Below, piece by piece: positions 8,793 through 60,671 of a stretch of 64,000 nucleotides of DNA. The position numbers were made by a program, and so were the translations under genes. Location of the stretch: contig CAMBPQ010000005.1 in the NCBI GenBank assembly GCA_945869735.1, positions 6,733-70,732 of the forward strand. The letters run 5' to 3'. The notes under the pieces were generated by a model, which saw only the letters and a program-made list of their open reading frames with translations, had not been told where the DNA came from and did not search any database. Source of the stretch: Planctomicrobium piriforme (GTDB lineage Bacteria; Planctomycetota; Planctomycetia; Pirellulales; UBA1268). Numbering within the stretch: the stretch's first letter is position 1; every line of letters begins with the position of its first letter.

Positions 8793-8800
8793 CGGCGGGC

Positions 8801-9139
8801 CTCCCATCAGAAAGCTCCAAGCGCAAGCACGGGGAATACGGGCGGCCTCGAGTCGATCCCGTATTCGTTCGCGAGTTGTGCTTCGGCGTCAGAAAGCCCC
8901 AAGCGCGAGCGCTGGGAATACGGGCGGCATTGATTCGGTACCGGATTGGATCGCCGGTCGGTGGCATGCTCGCCACCGGGGGATTTTGCTACAGGATGCC
9001 CGCTTGGCCTACGGAGTATCAATCGTGAGTCGCAAAGATTCCCCGGCGTCTGCGCGTGCCTCCGACCGGCTCCTCACGATCTGGAGACTGCGACTCCCGT
9101 CAGGCAGCCCCAATCGCGAGCGCGGAGAATACGTCCGCC
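8801..9139 (+). repeat. family-B repeat locus (three 40-nt motif copies plus one ~170-bp core)
   Basis: Motif copies are at about 8801-8846, 8885-8928 and 9094-9139. The core at 8929-9093 is homologous to 18885-19066. A 9-bp perfect hairpin GAATACGGG/CCCGTATTC lies at 8834-8876. Confidence 0.75.
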
Positions 9140-17608: not shown

Positions 17609-18732
17609 GCGGCGAACCGTGGATGGTGGGATTCCGGCGGGCCGCGGTGGCGAGCGGCATCGTGGTGGTGACATGCCTGATGGTGGCGATCTTCGAGGGC
17701 AGCCTGCGAGGCGAGCCCGCGGCGACGACACCGCGGGTCTTAAAGGTCGCGATCGCACCGATTGCCTCGGCGGTCGAGTGGCAGAACGATCAGCCGACGG
17801 GTGCCATGATCGACATCTGGAAGGAAGTTTCCCGACGGCTGGGCATCTCCTCGGAGTTCATCCGCGTCAAGACATTCGTCGAACTCATGGACCTGGTCCG
17901 GGAGGGGAAGGCCGACGTCTCGCTCGGGCCGCTGGCCATCACCGAAGAACGCGAAAAAATGTTCGATCTGACGCATCCCGTCTTCCACTCCGGCATGCGG
18001 ATCGCCGTGCGGCAGCGGAATGAAAGCGGGTTGGTGTCCGCTGTGCGGTCGATGCTGTCGTGGAAGCTCCTACAACTCATCGGGCTGGCCGTGGCCCTGG
18101 GTGTCGTCTCCGGCCACCTGCTCTGGTGGTGTGAACGAGGCCGCAATCCCCGCTCGTTTCCCCCGGACTATCCCCGCGGCGTCGGCGAGGCGATCTGGTG
18201 GATCATCTCGACGATCGTCACGGGCGGCTGCGACGACAAACACGTCGATGGCCCCCTCGGCCGAATCCTCGCCTTGTTGTGGATGATCGGCGGCATCGGC
18301 CTGATCGCCACCTTCACCAGTGTGCTCACGGCGACGATGACGGCCGAGCGTGTCACGGGCATGATTCAAGGCCCTCGCGACCTCGCGGGCCGGTCGATTG
18401 GCTGCCAGGAGGGCTCGGTGACCGTGTAGACGATCCGCCAACGTGGGGGTTTCCCGCAGGAGTATGCGACCATCCTCGATGCGATCGATGCGCTCGAACT
18501 TGGCATGGTAGACGCGGTGGTCGGCGAGGCTCAGACGCTGATGTACGTCATCAACGAGTCGGGAAGGAACGAGGTGAAGCTCGTCGGCCCGATCTTTGAC
18601 TCCTTCGACTACGGCCTGGCGCTGCCGACGAGCAGCCCGCTCCGCGAGGAACTCAATGCGGTGATCCTGCAACTGCGGGAGGACGGCACACTCACCCGCA
18701 TTCAGGAAACCTGGCTGGGCGTTCACGACTAG
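17605..18732 (+). pseudogene. GluR0-type ligand-gated ion channel (SBP lobe 1, M1, P-loop, M2, SBP lobe 2) interrupted by an in-frame TAG at 18427-18429
   Basis: Track ORFs 17224..18429 and 18505..18732 are in the same frame and are separated only by one TAG. Family-3 solute-binding lobes (ADVSLGPLAITEEREKMFDLTHPVF ... VDAVVGEAQTLMYVI ... YGLALPTSSPLREELN) flank a two-TM pore module (GEAIWWIISTIVTGGCDD). The ATG overlaps the upstream stop (ATGA at 17605-17608). Confidence 0.7.
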
Positions 18733-18840
18733 AGCGCATTCGAGTTACGTGGAACGCCGGCTCGGGGGCGGCAAAAGTCTCGTCGCTCTCTCGCCGCGGC
18801 GGCTCAGGCGCTCCTCGAGCGTTTGCCGACCCCCTTGCCT
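18730..18840 (-). repeat. family-A dispersed repeat, copy 1
   Basis: TAGAGCGCATTCGAGTTACGTGGAACGCCGGCTCGGGGGCGGCAAAAGTCTCGTCGC...GCTCCTCGAGCGTTTGCCGACCCCC. It starts on the TAG stop of the channel gene and abuts family B. Confidence 0.85.
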
Positions 18841-19160
18841 CCCGTCAGGAAGCCCCAAGCGCGAGCGCGGGGTATCCGGGCTGCATCGATGCGGTGCCGG
18901 ATTGGTTCACCGGCGGTGACATGCTCGCCGCCGGGGGATTTTGCTCCAGGATGCTCGGGTGGCCGACTGGGGAATTGCTTGAGAGTCGCAAAGATTCCCC
19001 GGCGTCTGCGCGTGCCACGCCCGGCTCCTCACGATCGGGAATCGGGTGGGTCACCGTGGGTGTTGCTTCCCGTCAGGAAGCCCCAAGCGCGAGCGCGGGG
19101 TATCCGGGTCGCATCGAGACGGTGCAGGATTGGTTCGCCCGCGGACGCTCAAAGGCCTGG
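18841..19160 (+). repeat. family-B repeat locus (about 1.3 tandem units of ~228 bp)
   Basis: The 40-nt motif cccgtcaggaagccccaagcgcgagcgcggggtatccggg occurs at 18841 and again at 19069. The intervening core is homologous to 8929-9093. Confidence 0.8.
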
Positions 19161-21506: not shown

Positions 21507-22220
21507 ATGAGCGATCTACAGCTTCCGTGTCCCGAACCGCAGGAGAGTGACATGACTTCGGTATCAGGTGGACAGAGCGAGTTGCGATGGTCGCCCAGGT
21601 TGAAGGGCGTCGTTCGTCGCGCTAGGGGTGATTTGAGCGGAAGCGCTCAAGCCGCCAGCATGGCCATGGGCCAAATCAAAGTAATCGAGCTTCGCAAACT
21701 GAGCGGGCAAGGTTTCGACGAGGCGTATCTCGAGAAGATAAGTCAGACGCTCAACTCGGGGGCTTCCAAGAGGTTCCAGGCGGTAGCGAGCAGCGAATCG
21801 TCTGCCTCGTCCAAGGGCTGGTGGATTGCCGCCGGAATCGCCGCGGCGACCGGCTGTCTCGCCTGCTGTCTCGCCTTCGGCGCGTTCTGGGCGTCACGGG
21901 GGCCGGCCCACAGCGTCTCGGGCACGCTGCTGTTGATGCGTACCCCCATCGTCGGAGCCGACGTCGTCTTCCATCCGACCAAGTCCGGGGGGAAACCCGC
22001 CCGGACCACCACGGGCGAGGACGGCTCATTTCGGATTGCGGGCCTGTTGCCAGATGCCTACAAGATCACGATCGATCCGGGCGAATCCAACGGTTCAATG
22101 TTCCCGGTTTCGTACGGTAGCGCTTCGACGACCCCGCTCATGCTCAATGTCTTCCGAGACAGGGACATGAAGCAGGTGAGGGTGAATACGATGACCCACC
22201 CAACGCGGAAAAAGACCTAG
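21507..22220 (+). CDS. hypothetical single-TM protein with C-terminal carboxypeptidase-regulatory-like beta-sandwich
   Basis: TM segment WWIAAGIAAATGCLACCLAFGAFWA. The C-terminal part VSGTLLLMRTPIVGADVVFHP...GEDGSFRIAGLLPDAYKITI resembles CarboxypepD_reg repeats. The gene is visibly lower in GC than its neighbours. Confidence 0.5.
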   Translation: MSDLQLPCPEPQESDMTSVSGGQSELRWSPRLKGVVRRARGDLSGSAQAASMAMGQIKVIELRKLSGQGFDEAYLEKISQTLNSGASKRFQAVASSESSASSKGWWIAAGIAAATGCLACCLAFGAFWASRGPAHSVSGTLLLMRTPIVGADVVFHPTKSGGKPARTTTGEDGSFRIAGLLPDAYKITIDPGESNGSMFPVSYGSASTTPLMLNVFRDRDMKQVRVNTMTHPTRKKT

Positions 22221-22387
22221 AGCGGGTTCGACTCACGTGGATCGCCGGCTCGAGGGCGGCAAAAATCTCGTCGCCGGGGCGAGCATACGCCCAAGGCTCC
22301 TCGAGCGTTCGCCGACCCCCTCACCTACCCCCTCCAAGGTGCCCGTTCCGTTCAACCAAAGGCAGATGCGCTCGATCCACGGGGTCA
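22218..22387 (-). repeat. family-A dispersed repeat, copy 2 (fills the whole space between two convergent genes)
   Basis: TAGAGCGGGTTCGACTCACGTGGATCGCCGGCTCGAGGGCGGCAAAAATCTCGTCGCCGGGGCGAGCATACGCCCAAGGCTCCTCGAGCGTTCGCCGACCCCC... It ends in CGATCCACGGGGTC, which is inverted relative to GACTCACGTGGATCG at the left end. Confidence 0.8.
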
Positions 22388-27394: not shown

Positions 27395-27403
27395 TAATAC
27401 GGG

Positions 27404-27598
27404 TCACACCTGAGCCTCTCGGATGAGCGACGGCTCGTCGAGGGAGGCGCGGTTGCTCCAGTGGTGGTCACGGAACCACAGCCACAGCCGCTCGTCAGGA
27501 TTCCGTTCCGGGGAATACGGCGGCAGGAACAGCGGCGACCCTCGGTAAGCCAATCCGGGGCCGCCAAGAGACAACCCGTACTCCCCGCGGTCGCGTGA
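27404..27598 (-). mobile_element. relic of an IS630/Tc1-mariner-family (DDE_3) transposase C-terminus
   Basis: The minus-strand frame reads SRDRGEYGLSLGGPGLAYRGSPLFLPPYSPERNPDERLWLWFRDHHWSNRASLDE...*. LPPYSPE(L/R)NP(I/D)E is the signature around the third catalytic residue of IS630 transposases. No upstream part of the gene is present. Confidence 0.55.
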
Positions 27599-27771: not shown

Positions 27772-28209
27772 ATGGACATTCTTGGTGAGATCTTGAAGCA
27801 GGTGCTCGAAGGCGCGGCCCAGCAGCAGCAACAGCCCCCGCAACGTCAACCGCAGGCCCAGCCCCAGCAGCGGCCGCAGCAGCCGCCCCAGGGCATGCCC
27901 TCGCCCAACGACCTCTCGGACATCCTCACCCAGATCTTCGGCGGCGGCGGAGCCCAGAAACTTCCCGATGTCGTCAAGCAGTTCGAGGAGAAAGGGATGC
28001 GTGATCAGGTCGACTCGTGGGTCCGCACCGGACCCAACAAACCGGTCGACCGGCGGCAGGTCGAAGATGCCTTCGGCCAGCGCGAGCTCGAAGACATCGC
28101 CAGTTCGAAGGGCATCGACCGCGACCAACTCGCGGAAGTGCTTGCCAAGTACATCCCCAGGATCATCGACGAGTTGACCCCGTCCGGCCAGCTGCCGTCA
28201 CGGCGTTAG
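27772..28209 (+). CDS. YidB/DUF937-family protein with Gln/Pro-rich linker
   Basis: VDSWVRTGPNKPVDRRQVEDAFGQRELEDIASSKGIDRDQLAEVLAKYIPRIIDELTPSGQLP matches the YidB C-terminal pattern. Confidence 0.7.
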   Translation: MDILGEILKQVLEGAAQQQQQPPQRQPQAQPQQRPQQPPQGMPSPNDLSDILTQIFGGGGAQKLPDVVKQFEEKGMRDQVDSWVRTGPNKPVDRRQVEDAFGQRELEDIASSKGIDRDQLAEVLAKYIPRIIDELTPSGQLPSRR

Positions 28210-28380
28210 AGCGCATTCGACCGACGCGGAGCGTCGAGATGACAATCTGGAAAACGTAGCCGCGGGGGTCGGCGAACGCTCGAGGAGCGTCGGGCCGCCG
28301 CGGCCCACAGCGACAATCCGCCGGACCGCGCGACGAGACTTTTGCGGCCCCCGAGCCGGCGATCCACGTCAGGCTGGTGC
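28207..28380 (+). repeat. family-A dispersed repeat, copy 3 (divergent centre)
   Basis: It starts on the yidB-like TAG as TAGAGCGCATTCGACCGACGCGGAGCGTCGAG. The core is GGGGGTCGGCGAACGCTCGAGGAGC...GACGAGACTTTTGCGGCCCCCGAGCCGGCGATCCACGTC. Confidence 0.8.
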
Positions 28381-28524
28381 GCACGAAAGCGGCTAGACAG
28401 GCCCTTCCCGTAGCGCCCGCCTCTTTGTGTGGCGAACGCTATCGGTCGGCCCGGGCGGACGATCGGCCGCGGACATATACTCGGGTCGTTCGACTCTTTC
28501 CTTACCGCAGGACGCCGGTCCCCC

Positions 28525-33510: not shown

Positions 33511-33644
33511 GCCTAAGGTTCTCGAGCGCATCTACCTTTGGGGGGTCGGCGAACGCTCGAAGAGCCTTGGGCGTATCCTCGCCCCGGCGACGAGACTGTT
33601 GCCGCCCCCGAGCCGACGATATCCGGAAGTCGAATGCGTTCCAG
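33511..33644 (+). repeat. family-A dispersed repeat, copy 4
   Basis: GCCTAAGGT...GGGGGTCGGCGAACGCTCGAAGAGCCTTGGGCGTATCCTCGCCCCGGCGACGAGACTGTTGCCGCCCCCGAGCCGACGATATCCGGAAGTCGAATGCG. Confidence 0.85.
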
Positions 33645-37557: not shown

Positions 37558-38260
37558 TTACCAGCAGGAGCGGCCTGCTCCGCGACCGGAAAGAGCAGTC
37601 GCGGCTCGGGAACATTGCCTGTAAGCCGGCGGGCGGACGCCCCTGGGCCACAGAGTGCGGCCGTCGATCATGGGCTTGGCCGACAGCTTCCCGCCAGCGA
37701 GCTGCACGAACGTCGGCAGCAGGTCGACCGTTCCGGCCATGGTGTCACACACGCTTGCCGCGGCGATGCGGCCGGGCCACCAGGCGATCGTGGGCACGCG
37801 CACGCCTCCTTCCCAGGTGCTTCCCTTGGAGCCCCGCAACGGGACCGCGCTGCCTCCATCGGTCCCGTTCGTCGCGCCAGAGCGGCACCACCCGTTCACC
37901 CGTAGCAGCCGATGGACGCTGCATGTCGTTGGAATACGGGATTCCGAAATAGTGGTCGAAGCCCTGCCTGGTCGGCAGGAACTCCGGCTGGTCGCCGAGG
38001 TGCCACTTGCCGACGCAGGCAGTGGCGTAGCCCTCGGCCCGCAGGCCATGAAGCCTTCCGGAGTGATAATCCTTTCCCCTCACGAACATCAGCCCCACCG
38101 TATTGGTCCCGGAAGGCAACCGTAAACGGGTGTTCCGCAGGACGGTCGAGGTTCGGCGTCGAGAGTACGGGAATCCCGTGGGCTGCGATGTCGCCGTAGC
38201 TCTGGTCGTCGGTCATCACATAGATGATGTTGGGTCGCCTGCGGGAGGTCCGGCGGGCCG
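37558..38260 (-). pseudogene. frameshifted, shortened sulfatase relic
   Basis: Sulfatase-like segments lie in three different minus-strand frames: [25 protein letters not shown] (N-terminal), [37 protein letters not shown] (middle) and [23 protein letters not shown]...VDLLPTFVQLAG (C-terminal). The total span is about half a normal sulfatase, and no CxPxR motif or signal peptide remains. Confidence 0.7.
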
Positions 38261-38272
38261 AAGCGGCCCAAT

Positions 38273-38318
38273 GCTCCTCGAGCGTTCGCCGACCCCCTTG
38301 CCTCCCTCACTCAGTTCA
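38273..38318 (-). repeat. family-A repeat, truncated copy 5
   Basis: GCTCCTCGAGCGTTCGCCGACCCCCTTGCCTCC, directly at the 5' edge of the sulfatase relic. Confidence 0.6.
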
Positions 38319-38401
38319 CCAACTCGTCGCTCCATCGATCCAAGCATCGCTATCCCAGAATCGCTCGAGCGGTCGGTCGGGGTGCCGGCCGCACGGAGTC
38401 A

Positions 38402-47519: not shown

Positions 47520-48554
47520 TCAATACCACACGCCCGCGCGGACGAGAAACGTGTCGGCCGGACGAACGTCGGCCGTGTCGGTGAGGTAATACTCGACCAG
47601 GCGGCCGGTCACCCAGCCGGTCTCGAGCCGCCACGTGATGCCGAGGTCGGCCGGCCGCCGCTCCCAGCCCACGAGCAGCCGGTAGTCGTGGTACACGACT
47701 ACGTCGTTGGCGCCGCTGTCGCGGCGGACTGCCCACTGGTTGCCGCCGAACTCACCCGCGACATAGACCCACTGCGCCGCGCGGCTGCTCTCGGCCACTC
47801 GCCAGGCGAGCCGCGGCCGCGGGAAGATGAGCTCGTGCCGCTGGTCGTCGGACGGCGTCCAGAGGATGCCGCCAGCGGGCAGCATGTTGACATCGTAGCG
47901 GTCGAGGTAGATCACCCCGGCGACGACCCGCACCTCGTCGGTCGCCTCCCACGCCCCGAACCCATGGCCCGTGATCCGGAAGGCCTGTGGCGTGTCGTTG
48001 ACGAAATCGCTGTACCAGCCCGGGGCGACAGCGAGGTCAACGCCGAATCGCGCGCCGATCTTCCGCATCCACCGCGCCTGGATCCACGACTCGTAAAGCT
48101 GTGACGGCAGCCCCGAGTCCGTCGGCCCTGGCACCTCGTCAACGAATGTCGTGCCAAAGCCGGGGGTCACCAGCAGCGGCGAATCGACTGTCGGGGCCGG
48201 CATACCGATCGTGAGGCTCGTGTCGAGCGTCGTCAGCCCCAGGCCGTCGGCGCCCAGACGGGGCAGCTCCGTTGTCGTGAAGATCGCCTGCTGGAGCGGA
48301 CCCGGCTTCGCGCCCGGCGGCAGCTTGCGGCCCGCCGGTGGCTCAAACTCCTGCCGCGGCTGCCCCGGTGGCGCCACGTCGTCGGGCAGGAGCGGCTCGG
48401 TGAGATCCTGAGGGTCGCCGAGCGCCGCCAGGCGGATCCGCGCGAAGAACTCCTGCTCCACTGGCGGCAGCGGCGTGACACGGCCGGCATCGGCCGCCGC
48501 CGTCGCCGTCGCGGACAACATACAGAGCACGGCGATGAGCGACAGCCGCATCAA
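47520..48554 (-). CDS. putative outer-membrane beta-barrel protein (paralogue 2, possibly BBP7/DUF1551-like)
   Basis: Signal peptide MMRLSLIAVLCMLSATATAAA. Alternating amphipathic strands and a C-terminal aromatic residue (..RAGVWY). It is clearly homologous to the upstream gene (PLLVTPGFG, GVIYLDR, WTPSDD, FPRPR..WR.AE, GEFGGN.W). Confidence 0.55.
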   Translation of the reverse strand: MMRLSLIAVLCMLSATATAAADAGRVTPLPPVEQEFFARIRLAALGDPQDLTEPLLPDDVAPPGQPRQEFEPPAGRKLPPGAKPGPLQQAIFTTTELPRLGADGLGLTTLDTSLTIGMPAPTVDSPLLVTPGFGTTFVDEVPGPTDSGLPSQLYESWIQARWMRKIGARFGVDLAVAPGWYSDFVNDTPQAFRITGHGFGAWEATDEVRVVAGVIYLDRYDVNMLPAGGILWTPSDDQRHELIFPRPRLAWRVAESSRAAQWVYVAGEFGGNQWAVRRDSGANDVVVYHDYRLLVGWERRPADLGITWRLETGWVTGRLVEYYLTDTADVRPADTFLVRAGVWY

Positions 48555-49735
48555 TACGCCAATCCCAGCCTAAACATGATCGTGCTGGGCAGGTCGACGA
48601 TCTGCGGCGGCCCGTCGACGTAAAAGAGTTGCCGGTAGAAGACGTAGCCGATCTCGAAGTTGCCCGCCATGCCCGTCTGCGCCATGGGCACGAACTCGGT
48701 GCCCAGCGCGATGCGGATGTCGTTGTAGTCGAAGGGGGTGATCATGTTGTAGTTGGACGTGCTGCGGCGAAACGTCCAGGCACCGCCGCCGTACTCACCC
48801 GAGAGATAAGCCCACCAGGCGCGTTTCTGCGTCTCGGCATACCGCCACGACGCCCGCGGTGCCGGGAAGAAGATGTCGTAGCGCGAGCGGTCGTTGGGCG
48901 TCCAGGTGGCGCCGAGCGCTGGCAGGAGTTTCACCTGGTTGCGGTCGAGGTAGATGATGCCCGCCTTGGCCTGCCAGGTGGGCGTGAGTTGGAGCGTGCC
49001 GATGGCGCGACCCATGAGTCGCCAACTCTCCCAGACGAGCACATCCCAGTTGGTATAGATGCCGACGCGGATCCCCAGCTCCGCTCCCCACAAGGGCGAG
49101 AACTTCGGATTCCAGGCCGCGTCGACGAAGACGTCGTAGGTGTTGGGGGGCAGGTCGGCCAACTGGGTCTGCGTGGTCTCTGGGCCGTCCCAGAGCTGCA
49201 GCCCGAAGCCGGGCGTGATGAGCAGCGGCGCATGGTTGATGTTGGCGGGCGAGTTGTGGAAAAAGGGCAGCGCGAATGTGGCGGTGGTGTCGAGTTCGTT
49301 GACGCCGACGTTGAGGTCGTTGCCGTCGCCGAGCAGGTAGGCCCAGCTGCCGCGCACGCCTTGAAAGACGTGCATCGTCTGCTGGTACGCCGCGCTCTGG
49401 GTGGGGGAGCCGGTGGGAAAGAGCGCGGCCTGCTGGGGCGGCGCCTGCGGCGGCACAAGCGACGGCGCGGCGGTCGAGTAGCCTGGATAGCCAGGCTGGC
49501 CGGCGATCGCCGATGGTGCCCAGGTCGACGACGTCGGACCGGGCGAGGGAAATACCTGCGAGGCCTGCGGCGCGTACGCGTCCCACGTCGGGGGCGGTGG
49601 CGAGAGCGGTGCCTGCGCGATGCGGTCGAGCGACGAGGCTGCCGGCGGCGGCAGATAGGACGTTTGCGCGGAGGCGCTTCCGGCTGCTGAAAATAGCAGG
49701 GCGATCGCCAGCACAAGTGAGACAGCCAACCGCAT
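48551..49735 (-). CDS. putative outer-membrane beta-barrel protein (paralogue 1)
   Basis: Signal peptide MRLAVSLVLAIALLFSAAGSASA, a Pro/Gln-rich linker, and the same conserved blocks (PLLITPGFG, GIIYLDR, WTPNDR, FPAPR..WR.AE, GEYGGG.W). It ends ..LGLAY. The ATG at 49735 has GGAG 10 nt upstream, whereas the track starts at GTG 49744. Its stop overlaps the downstream start by 4 nt. Confidence 0.55.
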   Translation of the reverse strand: MRLAVSLVLAIALLFSAAGSASAQTSYLPPPAASSLDRIAQAPLSPPPPTWDAYAPQASQVFPSPGPTSSTWAPSAIAGQPGYPGYSTAAPSLVPPQAPPQQAALFPTGSPTQSAAYQQTMHVFQGVRGSWAYLLGDGNDLNVGVNELDTTATFALPFFHNSPANINHAPLLITPGFGLQLWDGPETTQTQLADLPPNTYDVFVDAAWNPKFSPLWGAELGIRVGIYTNWDVLVWESWRLMGRAIGTLQLTPTWQAKAGIIYLDRNQVKLLPALGATWTPNDRSRYDIFFPAPRASWRYAETQKRAWWAYLSGEYGGGAWTFRRSTSNYNMITPFDYNDIRIALGTEFVPMAQTGMAGNFEIGYVFYRQLFYVDGPPQIVDLPSTIMFRLGLAY

Positions 49736-49748
49736 GCCGAGCACGCTC

Positions 49749-49784
49749 CTGCGAACCGCCGGAAGACTGCGAACCGCCGGAAGA
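49749..49784. repeat. perfect 2 x 18-bp tandem repeat in the 5' leader of the barrel operon
   Basis: ctgcgaaccgccggaaga ctgcgaaccgccggaaga, 14-49 nt upstream of ATG 49735 on the coding (minus) strand. Confidence 0.85.
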
Positions 49785-49897
49785 GCCCGGTGGCAGCGAA
49801 CTCATCGGAAGAGACAAAGGGAAATACGGGGGGTACCACGCACGCTCCAGGGGAATCAAGCCCGCGAGGAGGCATCGCGGGTCGCGAAATCGCGTCT

Positions 49898-50162
49898 GCC
49901 TAAGGTGCAGCGTCGAGATGGCACCTTGGAGGAGGTAGGCGAGGGGGTCGGCGAACGCTCGAGGAGCCTCGGGCGTATCCTCGCCCCGGCGACGAGACTT
50001 TTGCCGCCCCCGAGCCGGCGATCCACGCAAGTTGGATGCGCTCTCGCAGCGGTGTGGAGAGGGGGTCGGCGAACGCTCGAGGAACCTCGGGCGTATCCTC
50101 GCCCCGGCGCCGAGACTTTTGCCGCCCCTGAGCCGGCGATCCACCCACTTCGCATGCCGTCT
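49898..50162 (+). repeat. family-A dispersed repeat, copies 6 and 7 in tandem
   Basis: Two head-to-tail units span 49898-50046 and 50047-50162. Each reads GGGGGTCGGCGAACGCTCGAGGA(G/A)CCTCGGGCGTATCCTCGCCCCGGCG(A/C)CGAGACTTTTGCCGCCCC(C/T)GAGCCGGCGATCCAC.... Confidence 0.9.
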
Positions 50163-51002
50163 AGAATCCGTCTGTTACGGAGGCTTCCCAGCTTGACACA
50201 AACACCTTCCTTCGCGACCGATCCGGTCGATCCGCAGCGACTGAAGCGCGCCACGGGCCTCACGACGGTGGAGGTGCTCGCGGAGGCCTGCTCCACAATG
50301 GATCGAGCCCGAGAGATCGTGGCGGATCCCGCCTGCCCTCTGCCCGCCGCCATCGTCGCCGATCGGCAGACGCTCGGCCGCGGGCGGCGGGCGGCCCGCT
50401 GGTGGCAGCCGCCGGGAAGCCTCGCCGTGAGCCTCGTGGTCGACGCCGCCGCGGGCCCGCGGCCGATCTGGTCGCTCGCCTGCGGCGTGGCAGTCGCCGA
50501 GGCGATCCGGTCGCTCGAGCCGAACGTCGCGGCCGTCGTGCGCTGGCCCAATGACGTCGAAGTCGATGGCCGCAAGCTCGCCGGCATTCTCGTCGAGGCA
50601 TCGCCGACGGGCCGGACCATTTTCGGTATCGGGGTGAACACGACTGGGAGCGTGCACACCGCGCCGAAAGGGCTGCGGCACAGGCTCGTGACACTTCCCG
50701 ATCTCACGGGCAGGACACTGCCGCGGCAGAGACTCCTCGACGCCCTCGTGCCGCGGCTGCTCAGACTACTCGTTGACCTTGAGGCCGATCCCAACGCTCT
50801 TGAGTCGCGCTACCGGTCGCTCTGCGCATTAAACGGCACATTCGTCCGCGTGCACTCCCCAACCGGCGTGCACGCCGGCACCTGCAGAGGCATCGCGGCA
50901 GACGGGGCGCTGGTGCTCGACACCGAAGCCGGTCTGGTGCTCCTGCGCTCCGGGAGCCTCACGCCCCCGGGCGACGAATGGCGCGGCGACGCGGCAGGCT
51001 GA
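50154..51002 (+). CDS. birA: biotin--[acetyl-CoA-carboxylase] ligase
   Basis: ADRQTLGRGRRAARWWQPPGSLAVSLVV (the GRGRxGRxW-type biotin-binding loop), WPNDVEVDGRKLAGILVE and IFGIGVN. The start is uncertain, because ATG 50154 lies inside the last family-A repeat. Confidence 0.75.
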   Translation: MPSRIRLLRRLPSLTQTPSFATDPVDPQRLKRATGLTTVEVLAEACSTMDRAREIVADPACPLPAAIVADRQTLGRGRRAARWWQPPGSLAVSLVVDAAAGPRPIWSLACGVAVAEAIRSLEPNVAAVVRWPNDVEVDGRKLAGILVEASPTGRTIFGIGVNTTGSVHTAPKGLRHRLVTLPDLTGRTLPRQRLLDALVPRLLRLLVDLEADPNALESRYRSLCALNGTFVRVHSPTGVHAGTCRGIAADGALVLDTEAGLVLLRSGSLTPPGDEWRGDAAG

Positions 51003-55278: not shown

Positions 55279-56145
55279 ATGGCGGTGTCTCGAAAATCGC
55301 GTGTTCAGGTGCAGACGCCCCGGGCGGGGATCGACGCCGCCGCATTGGCTCGACGGGAACTGCTCGCCTTGCTGTCGGCCGCCGCCGGCACGCGGGTCGC
55401 CGTCTACCAGCCACTCGTGCTGGTGCGGCCCGATGCCGCAACGGATCTGCTTGGCGACATCCGCAATGTCTGTCTGGGGTCTACCTCCGACGGAAACGCC
55501 ATCGCCGATGGCCGGGAACTCGGATCGATGCTCGCCACTGCCGAGGCCCACGACCGCCTTGATCGACTCCACGCCCGCCTGCTCTCGAAGCCATTCCTGC
55601 TCGTGCGGGGCGTCGATCGCCTCGCCTCGCCTCACTGCCAGCACCTCTTCGCAAGATTGCTCGATGCCGCCGCGGAAGCCGGCACGCTGGTCTGCGTGTC
55701 ACTGGCCCGGACGCCGGTCGCGGCGGGGCTTGAGGCGGCACTCGAGTCGCGGCTTTCCGCCGGCATGGTGCTCTCCCTTCCAGCGGCCGACCGGAGCCTC
55801 GATCGGGATGCTGGCATGGTGCCATCACGATCCATCGCCAGCCTGATTCGGTCGACGGCGCGGCATCACGGCATCGCCGCCGAGGTGCTCATTGGCCATG
55901 GCCGTCAGCAGTGCGTGGTTCGCATCCGCAGCGTGGCGATGTATCTGGCCCGGCGGCTGACGATCCACAGCCTGGAGGAGATTGGCAAGGCTTTTGGCGG
56001 CAGACAGCACACCACCGTGATGCGGAGCGTCCGCAGCGTAAACAAGTGGATCCGTGCCGATCACGGCTTCGCGCAGGACGTGGAAAAAATTGTGGGGGAA
56101 CTGCGGGCACCACGGCTCCGTCGCCGCAGGCATCCGGCGGGATGA
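55279..56145 (+). CDS. DnaA-like protein: DnaA domain IV plus a degenerate AAA+ core without Walker A/B
   Basis: The C-terminal VRIRSVAMYLARRLTIHSLEEIGKAFGGRQHTTVMRSV is a DnaA DNA-binding-domain signature. The central LLVRGVDRLA...GTLVCVSLARTP...LESRLSAGMVLSL aligns to the DnaA box VI-VII region. No GxxGxGKT is present. The gene occupies the dnaA position upstream of dnaN. Confidence 0.7.
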   Translation: MAVSRKSRVQVQTPRAGIDAAALARRELLALLSAAAGTRVAVYQPLVLVRPDAATDLLGDIRNVCLGSTSDGNAIADGRELGSMLATAEAHDRLDRLHARLLSKPFLLVRGVDRLASPHCQHLFARLLDAAAEAGTLVCVSLARTPVAAGLEAALESRLSAGMVLSLPAADRSLDRDAGMVPSRSIASLIRSTARHHGIAAEVLIGHGRQQCVVRIRSVAMYLARRLTIHSLEEIGKAFGGRQHTTVMRSVRSVNKWIRADHGFAQDVEKIVGELRAPRLRRRRHPAG

Positions 56146-56675
56146 CGCCCGACGCACGCGTGTGAGTTCACTGTTGAGTGGGTGGTTCGAAACGGCCGGC
56201 CGCCGAACCGACAAAAGAACCCGCCGCTGCGGCACCAGAAAACCAACCAGCACCGCCTCGTGTGTGGGCATGTTGCTGAAAAGCCCATGCCGGGCAACCC
56301 ACTGCCACCATGCATCCTCATGATGCCTGACCGTCACCGGTTCACCATTCAACCAACAGACCATGCACATCGACGTCCTGTCGAAATATCGCATTTTTTA
56401 GGCGAATAGTCGGCGGTTTTTGCCCCTCACTGCGAGCGTTGTTGGTTTTCGAACGGGAGCCGTTCGCTGGTCGGCTGTTTCTTCTTACCTTGAATACTCT
56501 TTCCTGTTGTCTCCTTTCATTACGTAATGACAAAAATCCAGCCAGCATTCCGCGTTCAATCGGCCCTTGGCCGTCCGCGGCATGCACGCCGGGGGCATTT
56601 CAGCAGGCTCTTTTTCGGGTACAGTAAGGGGCTTCGGGATTCACTGTGAGTACCGGGAAAGGATCGAGATCGTCG
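56146..56675. other. candidate replication origin / regulatory spacer between the dnaA-like gene and dnaN
   Basis: This 530-bp non-coding gap is much longer than other gaps in the window. It has the lowest-GC stretch seen locally (56478-56540), the perfect palindrome TCATTACGTAATGA (56517-56530), the hairpin CGAACGG-GAG-CCGTTCG (56451-56467) and three AACCAAC heptamers (56241 +, 56351 +, 56441 -). Confidence 0.35.
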
Positions 56676-57788
56676 ATGAAGATTCGCTGCCCGAAGGAGC
56701 CACTCCTGGCCGCACTGCAAAGTGCCACGGCGGTCGTTCCCACGCGTTCGCCCAAGCCGGTGCTTACGAACGTGAAACTTGAGGCCACCCCAGGGGGCGT
56801 GGTCCTTTCGGCGACGGATCTCGAGGTCGGCATTCGGATTGAAATCGAGGGTGTGGAGATATCGGCTCCCGGTGCGGTTCTCCTACCGAGCACCCGTCTG
56901 ATGGCGATTGTCCGTGAGAGTGGGCCTGGTACCGTGTTCGATATTCATTCCGACGGCACGGCCACCGTGGTCAAGGCGCCGCGGAGCGAGTTTCGTCTGC
57001 CGGCCGAGGACCCGCTCGAGTTTCCCTCGGTGGCCACGTTTCCGACGGGTGAGTATTTCGAACTCGCGACTCCACTGGTCCGCGAGTTGGTGAAGCGGAC
57101 CGTGTTTGCGACCGACAGCGAGTCGAGCCGCTACGCCCTGGGTGGCGTGTTGGTCGAGTTCTCACAGCCGGGAGTGATTGCGGTTGGCACTGACGGCCGC
57201 CGGCTGGCGAAGATGCAGGGGCCTGCCGAGGCGCGGGATGGTGCGCAGGCCGACGCGCAGCCGATTGTGCCGGCCCGCGCGATGCAACTGATCGAACGCT
57301 GTCTCGGTGGCGGCGATCAGACTGTCCACCTCGCTGTCCGTTCCAACGAGATTCTCGTCAAAACTGGGGGCACGACGATTTCGGCCCGCCTCGTCGAGGG
57401 CCGCTTTCCCAGATGGCGAGATGTCTTCCCCGAGCGGCCCGACGCGGTCCGCGTGCAACTCGTGGCGGGACCGCTACTGGCGGCTGTGCGGCAGGCCGCA
57501 ATCGTCACCAGCGAACAGTCAAAGGGAGTCGACTTCTCGTTCGAATCAGGGCAGCTGGTGCTCTCGGGTCGGTCGGCGGAGAGCGGCGAAAGCCGGGTTG
57601 AACTGCCGATCGACTATTCCGGGGCCACCGTCAGGATCAAACTCGACCCCCGCTTCATGGCCGACTTCCTCCGTGTGCTCGACCCTGCTGCGACCGTGGC
57701 TGTCGAAATCACCGATGCACAAAGCGCTTGCGTCTGTAGCACCGAGGACGGGTACGGCTACGTCATCATGCCACTCGCGGCCGACTAA
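56676..57788 (+). CDS. dnaN: DNA polymerase III subunit beta (sliding clamp)
   Basis: MKIRCPKEPLLAALQSATAVVPTRSPKPVLTNVKLEA is the typical clamp N-terminus, the length fits three domains, and the protein ends in YVIMPL. ATG 56676 is in frame in track ORF 56646..57788. Confidence 0.9.
   Translation: MKIRCPKEPLLAALQSATAVVPTRSPKPVLTNVKLEATPGGVVLSATDLEVGIRIEIEGVEISAPGAVLLPSTRLMAIVRESGPGTVFDIHSDGTATVVKAPRSEFRLPAEDPLEFPSVATFPTGEYFELATPLVRELVKRTVFATDSESSRYALGGVLVEFSQPGVIAVGTDGRRLAKMQGPAEARDGAQADAQPIVPARAMQLIERCLGGGDQTVHLAVRSNEILVKTGGTTISARLVEGRFPRWRDVFPERPDAVRVQLVAGPLLAAVRQAAIVTSEQSKGVDFSFESGQLVLSGRSAESGESRVELPIDYSGATVRIKLDPRFMADFLRVLDPAATVAVEITDAQSACVCSTEDGYGYVIMPLAAD

Positions 57789-60671
<2,883 letters not shown>

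Follow-up and report, generated by a model that had tools for sequence, protein, structure and literature searches.

The Correia elements of Neisseria (CREE/NEMIS) are 100–160 bp long, carry terminal inverted repeats (TIRs) of 26–27 bp, are flanked by a duplicated TA and form a hairpin when transcribed, and it is their TIRs that represent the conserved part, which is cleaved by RNase III. The ERIC/IRU repeats of enterobacteria and Vibrio are imperfect palindromes of ~127 bp that occupy transcribed intergenic regions and show striking conservation across species, and orientation-dependent effects on mRNA stability have been reported for ERIC. Stowaway-like MITEs (miniature transposable elements with inverted repeats) of the IS630/Tc1-mariner type are characterized by duplication of TA, preference for CTAG, TIRs, small size and foldback, and are normally most conserved at their termini. 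In addition, REP/BIME repeats are high-copy intergenic palindromes found at the 3' ends of genes, where they are thought to stabilise the upstream mRNA. In PMC3733652, REPs are described as units of 20–40 nt with a GTAG or CGTC head, tied to RAYT transposases. The present study concerns Family A, a non-coding, dispersed repeat with copies of 120–190 bp (full copies ~160 bp) in a stretch of 64,000 nucleotides of a Planctomicrobium piriforme assembly (contig CAMBPQ010000005.1; this 64-kb stretch is hereafter called the window). The host is an abundant freshwater planctomycete, and the repeat is also found in its relatives and in lake metagenomes. Family A probably represents a new bacterial MITE family that duplicates TA, its closest likeness being to the Correia or ERIC elements.

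With Correia elements, Family A shares size, TIR length, TA flanks, a long hairpin and the location of many copies close to genes, and to our knowledge a mobilising transposase has been recognized for neither. However, there is no sequence relationship, the host belongs to another phylum, and whereas Correia elements are most conserved in their TIRs, Family A is most conserved in an internal 85-nt rod with tandem G.A pairs, which is common to metagenome-assembled genomes (MAGs) of different order labels. The likeness to ERIC lies in the imperfect palindrome, the intergenic setting, the conservation across species and, probably, orientation-dependent behaviour, but ERIC lacks clear TA duplications and an IS630-like target, whereas Family A has defined TIRs and an insertion polymorphism between relatives; again, the sequences are unrelated. 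Of the Stowaway traits, a probable TA duplication, the preference for CTAG, TIRs, small size and foldback recur in Family A, yet its conservation is greatest in the middle rather than at the termini, and no cognate IS630-family element with matching TIRs was found in 2 Mb of related loci. Compared with REP/BIME repeats, which it resembles in being a high-copy intergenic palindrome at gene 3' ends, Family A is four times their length and bears TIRs as well as flanking TA. Except for an autonomous partner, none of which was found in the related loci, Family A agrees with the working definition of a bacterial MITE, and literature searches on planctomycete MITEs or RNA motifs returned no description of it.

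A core seed, the 26-mer GGGGGTCGGCGAACGCTCGAGGAGCC with up to 3 mismatches allowed, matched the window at seven places, namely 18809, 22295 and 38272 on the minus strand and 28264, 33541, 49943 and 50061 on the plus strand, and matched none of 100 shuffles, which makes 7 copies in 64 kb against 0 expected, or ~1 copy per 9 kb. The same seven loci and no others were returned by a covariance model (R1) derived from 72 related copies and applied with filters off, with six complete cores scoring 57–99 bits, one truncated core scoring 26 bits and the opposite strand scoring at most 16 bits. The sequence-only reading of the window had proposed a structured, MITE-like, TA-targeting repeat with at least seven copies; the copy number is borne out by both scans, and the character of the repeat by its sharp ends, TIRs, TA flanks, empty sites in relatives and covarying fold. 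No Pfam or Rfam family matches inside the copies, and in the window as a whole no Rfam family reaches its gathering threshold, all matches within 49800–50250 having E > 8. Beyond the window, loci were gathered by a scan of one genome per species with an exact 23-mer from the 5' half of the core and, independently of this genome set, by running a 21-mer taken from the 3' half against JGI metagenomes. The core occurs in at least 108 genome loci and at least 120 metagenome loci, and 221 copies of Family A were counted across the gathered loci. The genome-scan matches listed all stem from MAGs that bear a Planctomycetota label (Pirellulales, Planctomycetia, Planctomycetaceae and, for a few, Kuenenia).

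The ends of full copies with their flanking TA read TA-GAGCGCAT...ATGCGCTC-TA or, in another notation, TA-GAGCGCATCT...AGATGCGCTC-TA, and their imperfect 27-bp TIRs stand at constant spacing from the core, the left-end TAG 57 nt before GGGGG and the right-end CTA 29 nt after GAGCC. The terminal 27 nt at both ends follow, imperfectly, the pattern TAGAGCGCATCT-nnnn-TACGTGTAGCG and its complement. The imperfect inverted repeats that had been read earlier as bounding several copies are confirmed. In six copies of one MAG (L007, L045, L047, L052, L092 and L105), similarity stops exactly outside TAG...CTA. The base before the left TA is mostly C and the base after the right TA mostly G; deviating outer bases (T at the left end, A or T at the right) vary independently, with at least five copies carrying unlike outer bases, such as TTAG...CTAG and CTAG...CTAA or CTAT, and the inner G and C are constant. 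Because the outer bases are independent and the inner ones fixed, the flanks fit a 2-bp duplication of TA, with termini G...C and CTAG as the preferred site, rather than a 4-bp duplication of CTAG or YTAR. Moreover, mismatches between the arms are strand-symmetric, with 38 of the G.T type versus 33 of the A.C type in addition to many transversion mismatches, and therefore the arms behave as TIRs at the level of DNA. The terminal TAGAGCGC was also considered as a tRNA D-arm likeness after it had been noted in L007, where at ~7461 the terminal motif CTAGAGCGC lies as well inside the D-arm-like sequence GTAGCTCAGCCTGGCTAGAGCGC; by eye, the likeness was judged coincidental.

Evidence for insertion comes from relatives of the window organism. 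Four loci (L129–L132) were reached via FloA homologues that are 91–93% identical, and gene order is common to them and the window over ~21 kb. According to the covariance model, this shared block holds four copies in the window versus none in L129–L132, and since all four are missing in syntenic relatives, the element is an insertion. The clearest site lies between yidB and the esterase gene, where ...CGG-TAG-CAGG... in L129 corresponds to ...CGT-TAG-[element]-TAG-ACAGG... in the window. The orthologous floA site is without the element in L129 and L131, the spacer around it having diverged; the intergenic region orthologous to that of the 22218–22375 copy is without it in L129; and at a carboxypeptidase-like site the element is absent in the relative and the surrounding spacer has diverged. 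When flanks were blasted against all loci, further filled and empty pairs emerged, five site comparisons in number, namely L076 and L149 versus L057, L001, L065 and L217, L243 and L048 versus L047, L222 versus L176, and L214 versus L046, among which the L243/L047 site is compatible with a TA junction, although less clean than that at yidB.

Target preference offers an account of where the copies lie. According to PMC2170065 and its reference Tenzen & Ohtsubo 1991, IS630-family elements target TA, which is duplicated, and IS630 favours a TA that lies within CTAG. The flanks of most Family A copies, C-TA...TA-G, match this documented behaviour. In the window, TA is found at 0.38 of expectation, TTAA at 0.14 and CTAG at 0.08 (16 found, 198 expected), with element ends making up 4 of the 16 CTAG sites; GATC and TCGA are ~threefold over-represented. 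When all loci are considered, 30 of 60 testable left ends and 32 of 72 right ends have a terminal TAG that doubles as the in-frame stop codon of the adjoining gene. In the window, this is the case for the copies at 18730 (TAG 18730–18732, stop of the plus-strand gene ending at 18732), 22218 (TAG 22218–22220, stop of the plus-strand gene 21564–22220) and 28207 (TAG 28207–28209, stop of yidB). With TA and CTAG scarce in a 67% G+C genome and concentrated in TAG stops, insertions would land at gene ends, and as the element begins with G, the stop codon would be regenerated by the element's own terminal TAG. Insertion that seeks TA or CTAG and is steered in this way to TAG stops would explain the 3'-end location without invoking selection.

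The core is an 85-nt imperfect palindrome that is predicted to fold into a rod-like hairpin, RNAalifold and a manual model being in agreement. In its outermost part, GGC/GCC is followed by a tandem G.A/A.G pair and by GGGGG-(bulged U)-CGGC paired with GCCG-CCCCC; next inward are G.U and A-U pairs, a small internal loop, and U-A and C-G pairs; and the inner helix consists of a tandem G.A, one Watson-Crick pair, another tandem G.A, and then G-C and C-G. The tip is a variable terminal hairpin (GGGCG-UAUCCU-CGCCC, GGGCC-GCCGC-GGCCC, UGUGGCC...GGCCACA and others), and in some subfamilies an additional hairpin is inserted (...GCGACAAUCCGAAGGACCGCGAAGCGGCGAC...). In the first set of 114 copies, standard pairs occupy 93.5% of cells versus 30–58% when partners are slid, compensatory changes occur in 14 of 25 pairs, and none of 500 shuffles reaches the observed values; in 71 copies the central pair 30–62, for example, is G-C, and in another 28 it is C-G. 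In the independent metagenome set of 109 copies, compensatory changes occur in 18 of 31 pairs. Two independently drawn sets of copies thus provide compensatory changes in favour of the core fold. Two of the three tandem G.A pairs are replaced by Watson-Crick pairs in some subfamilies, one being swapped for G-C/C-G in the metagenome subfamily CTCGCGGAGC...GCGACGCGAC and the outer G.A/A.G pair being swapped for U-A/C-G in another, which confirms the pairing register. The innermost tandem G.A (A2 columns 31–32 with 60–61) stays non-standard almost throughout (88 of 89 copies and 88 of 91 copies). Folding is predicted to yield minimum free energies of −50 kcal/mol in the core (z = −2.8 and −3.7) and, in a full copy, where the arms would close the structure, of −81.7 kcal/mol (z = −4.3).

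This fold retains one of the two pairings that had been proposed by eye and discards the other. Pairing of GGGGG(T)CGGC with GCCGCCCCC belongs to the covariation-backed rod, whereas the inner hairpin CGAGGA..TCCTCG lacks conservation: by covariation, CGAGGAG is the partner of CGACGAG in a tandem G.A helix, and the terminal hairpin is separate and variable. The CGAGGA/TCCTCG hairpin could form only in the subfamily with the UAUCCUCG loop and is contradicted by the covariation of pair 30–62. A small 5' hairpin in the spacer, predicted in single sequences, was also set aside, as its support across copies was inconsistent by eye. Likewise, a sigma-70 or sigma-54 promoter in the spacer, suggested by an nTGGCA motif, was rejected because the spacing is unfit and the promoter scan negative.

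The core survives longer than the TIRs. Four orthologous pairs from different MAGs have core identities of 95, 99, 88 and 82%, compared with 46–81% for the former arms and 53–96% for the flanking, mostly coding DNA. Terminal 10-mers grade from perfect to random-like, with both arms present in 64 copies, partial in 80 and absent in 58. The core is kept either by selection or by gene conversion among copies; L017 and L022, as well as L085 and L030, differ by subfamily-specific blocks, including a G-C/C-G swap, which fits either conversion or compensation in place. Furthermore, copies are oriented with respect to transcription. Between tandem genes, the ratio of sense to antisense copies is 22:7 in the genome set and 23:7 in the metagenome set (p = 0.005), 45:14 in total; copies are co-oriented with rather than opposed to the upstream gene at 55:21 (p = 1e-4) and 65:17 (p = 9e-8), respectively; and convergent versus divergent contexts number 22:8 and 25:7. 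The bias is 38:9 in copies with intact arms and 37:11 in those with no arms. Cut-and-paste by a DDE transposase would not be expected to respond to transcription, and the bias therefore points to an effect, exerted on transcripts or by them, that depends on orientation. The core may act as an RNA co-transcribed with the upstream gene, for instance as a 3'-untranslated-region stabiliser or a processing hairpin, roles of a kind reported for Correia and ERIC elements, and such action in the upstream transcript would account for the retention of a single orientation by hosts once the arms have decayed.

With regard to mobilisation, Family A would be a non-autonomous DNA transposon whose 27-bp TIRs (5'-GAGCGCATCT...) are recognized by a DDE transposase acting in trans, and the excised element would be pasted into TA, with duplication of TA and preference for a CTAG context, as for IS630/Tc1-mariner. 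It is target behaviour, taken by itself, that suggests a transposase of the IS630/Tc1-mariner family. The window does hold a relic of this family, an open reading frame at 27404–27574 on the minus strand that contains ...LFLPPYSPERNPDERLW..., reaches 30.9 bits for Pfam DDE_3 (PF13358) against a cut-off of 28.6, and represents a C-terminal IS630-family fragment with an end of its own, TA-ATACGGGTCACACC, at 27396–27410. Its closest relatives are also degraded (100–156 aa) and recur with intact-looking ends in the planctomycete contigs L253 and L255; both they and the relic end in TA-(A/T)ACGGGTCACAC, with no resemblance to GAGCGCATCT. The relic that had been linked to Family A is therefore a genuine DDE_3 fragment, but the link fails, and the relic was rejected as the mobilising source because its ends are unrelated to the Family A TIR. 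Arm-only termini that might mark a full insertion sequence (IS) gave only chance matches within coding sequence in the 2 Mb of loci that carry Family A.

The point that the only IS630-family relic found mismatches the TIRs has a counterpart in the start of the TIR itself, GAG, and both would suit a MITE moved by an IS5-family transposase (IS427, IS1031 or ISL2 groups; relatives of PIF/Harbinger) instead of an IS630/Tc1-mariner one. Several IS5 subgroups have ends starting with GAG, GG or Ga/g and make duplications of 2–4 bp. MITEPsy1, moreover, is an IS5-related MITE that inserts at CTAG or YTAA (PMC3189936). Nevertheless, an IS5 source is unlikely, for the unlike bases outside TA in the copies noted above are contrary to a 4-bp CTAG or YTAR duplication, strict TA duplication combined with CTAG preference is the documented behaviour of IS630, and no IS5-family gene turned up near the copies, although no search aimed at IS5 was made. 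Still more remote, to the point of being highly improbable, are REP/BIME units spread by a RAYT (Y1 HUH) enzyme, integron attC-like sites and a family of intrinsic terminators, which look superficially alike in that they are intergenic palindromes at 3' ends with a variable loop. The Family A unit of 85–160 nt exceeds the 20–40 nt of REPs, lacks their conserved GTAG/CGTC head and has long TIRs flanked by TA; its copies lie on both strands among housekeeping genes, with no one-way array and no visible R'/R'' (GTTRRRY) boxes such as attC would require; and the hairpin is without a following U-tract, the consensus having no T-run after the rod.

A different question is what keeps the core alike, and here a host-beneficial structured RNA, that is, a generic untranslated-region module binding a protein or RNase, might be the selected unit, with the MITE only its vehicle, most survivors domesticated and the specific function new for MITEs. 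This is possible, but less likely than not. In its favour are the contrast between conserved cores and decayed arms at orthologous copies, the innermost tandem G.A that is almost never replaced, the modular optional hairpin, and an orientation bias that is already there in copies with intact arms. The 5' half, scored without selection bias in 110 metagenome copies, has only 79 mismatches in 2530 positions, 44 of them at two covarying sites. In addition, arm-less copies often lie 20–60 nt upstream of start codons, including those of cysS, metG, ribD, a peroxiredoxin gene (bcp) and dehydrogenase genes. These downstream genes are functionally unrelated, however, and a ligand-specific riboswitch was rejected on that ground. 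Another process that could keep cores alike is gene conversion among the hundreds of copies, with which the block differences described above would agree; detection needs a conserved core, and heavily decayed cores would escape it; and the mismatches carry no strand-specific signature. An excess of G.U over A.C in the core, 50:12, had been entertained as proof of action as an RNA strand, but it is an artefact of choosing loci by the exact 5'-half 23-mer, since that choice removes changes that create A.C and makes the excess unreliable; when each half is scored in the set chosen on the other half, 9 G.U-type and 11 A.C-type mismatches are found, with no strand signal. Such symmetry would suit a palindrome that acts in DNA, as a site for a nucleoid, recombination or replication protein or as a cruciform or single-stranded DNA hairpin, with conservation unrelated to RNA. 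Compensatory changes are equally expected of a DNA palindrome, and Correia elements carry an IHF site. Yet a symmetric DNA site predicts none of the strong bias with respect to upstream transcription that was seen in two independent sets; orientations in the window are mixed and do not follow a single strand (minus at 18730, 22218 and 38273; plus at 28207, 33511 and 49898); and asymmetric features (the bulged U, G.U, and G.A rather than C.U) are conserved on one strand. Action in DNA is accordingly rather improbable.

Several observations weigh against Family A as a TA-duplicating MITE with an RNA-level role for its core. The relatives with empty sites are only 80–90% identical in DNA; a TA junction is seen only at yidB and, less cleanly, at L243/L047; and at the other empty sites the intergenic sequence has given way to different sequence and is not simply interrupted. 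A 2-bp duplication and a TA belonging to the repeat itself can be distinguished only by clean excision or empty sites. About 20 strain-level contigs of the window organism carry identical copies with no presence/absence polymorphism, giving no sign of current activity in the window population. In 2 Mb of related loci, there was no autonomous element with matching TIRs, and tblastn detected no DDE_3 gene except copies of the relic in strain contigs of the window organism; as MAG and metagenome contigs assemble IS copies poorly, a missing autonomous IS is weak evidence. With respect to the RNA, neither a sigma-70-like promoter nor an intrinsic terminator was found on either strand of 49700–50300, and the support for the fold acting as RNA is indirect. 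An RNA-level role of the core is what the orientation bias and the persistence of the core would suggest. It has further been considered that the 85-nt rod is an undescribed functional RNA module of freshwater Planctomycetota that was spread by the MITE and then domesticated, possibly as an element recognized by a protein or RNase that sets mRNA 3' ends, or as an insulator of neighbouring genes. This proposal is speculative and on the doubtful side, but it would explain a near-invariant core across hundreds of copies and MAGs of different order labels, together with the almost-never-replaced G.A pair, the persistence of the core after TIR loss and a sense bias of 3:1–4:1.

The individual copies of the window show the element in various states of completeness. 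All are intergenic by gene calls, as had been stated, and the further statement that they lie mostly at gene 3' ends holds for all but the tandem pair. This pair is found between divergent genes, those for a 394-aa protein of unknown family (48551–49735, minus strand) and for biotin-protein ligase (50193–51002, plus strand; Pfam match BPL_LplA_LipB), and thus upstream of the latter. Its first copy, 49886–50045 on the plus strand (99.2 bits), consists of a degenerate left TIR (GAAATCGCGTCTGCC...), a spacer, the core at 49934–50019 and a right TIR (...GGATGCGCTCTC), and the second, 50047–50163 on the same strand (81.2 bits), has the core at 50052–50137 and a right TIR (...GCCGTCTA) followed by G, is without left TIR and spacer, and ends 29 nt before the biotin-protein ligase gene start at 50193. 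The pair amounts to a 118-nt tandem duplication (49938–50055 and 50056–50173) with 86% identity. In other loci, cores are also tandem or clustered, with 2–3 within 400 nt and some inverted (L030 6910–7080, L151 11859–12077, L098 5694–6084 and L182 785–967), and hence the pair in the window is not unique. A full copy with both arms recognized lies at 22218–22375 on the minus strand (91.4 bits) between convergent genes. The copy at 28207–28394 on the plus strand (57–66 bits), with the flanking TA at 28207–28208 and 28393–28394 included, is full as well and belongs to the subfamily with the extra internal hairpin. At 33521–33643 on the plus strand (73.6 bits), 17 nt past the floA stop codon, a copy has lost ~38 nt of left arm and spacer. 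The seven places given by the sequence-only reading were right, and their bounds have been refined, e.g., to the extents given here for the copies at 22218, 28207 and 33521, for the first of the tandem pair and for the truncated copy (~38245–38368).

This truncated copy, on the minus strand (26.3 bits, E = 0.0014), lacks its 3' third; still present are the left TIR (TCGAGCGATTCT...), the spacer and two-thirds of the core from the 5' side, beyond which a sulfatase-like gene fragment is joined on, an N-terminal piece at 37745–38245 on the minus strand. In L129 and L130, a 1519-aa gene stands at this position between DUF485 and ThuA, which indicates that the window lineage has undergone a deletion or rearrangement with its breakpoint inside the element. 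The remaining copy, 18730–18843 on the minus strand (82.2 bits), has the core and right TIR only, and on its 5' side a unit of another repeat, Family B, replaces the left arm. Family B (unit ...CCCGTATTCCCCGCGCTCGCGCTTGGGGCTTCCTGACGGGAG...) is present in the window at 8797–9130 and 18835–19150, read on the minus strand, and also in L004, L009, L019 and L091; it is both tandem, with a period of 82 nt in the window and of 127 nt, three times over, in L009, and dispersed, and at 18843, as in L004, L009 and L019, it adjoins the 5' side of the Family A core in a direct fusion. Compared with the strain contig L121, the window contains one additional 82-nt Family B unit. Many strain assemblies of the window organism end at ~18950, inside this cluster of Family A and Family B, and the 202-kb contig behind L121 agrees with the window as far as 19255, beyond which unrelated sequence follows, a break that may be either a rearrangement or a chimeric join at repeats. 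Elsewhere in the window, dnaA, dnaN, dciA and gyrB stand in a row at 55279–60671, and the window therefore probably includes the region of the chromosomal replication origin.

Mobile and non-coding elements of planctomycete genomes have been little charted. Family A coincides with contig breaks in metagenome assemblies and often supplies the stop codons of its neighbours, with consequences for gene calling and for how contiguous MAGs are in a lineage widespread in fresh water; the covariance model could serve to annotate the family. It also provides a clear case of TA-targeted insertion being funnelled onto TAG stops in a high-G+C genome. Moreover, a MITE whose interior is better conserved than the ends needed for transposition represents a tractable system in which to ask whether bacterial MITEs are kept for an RNA-level function.

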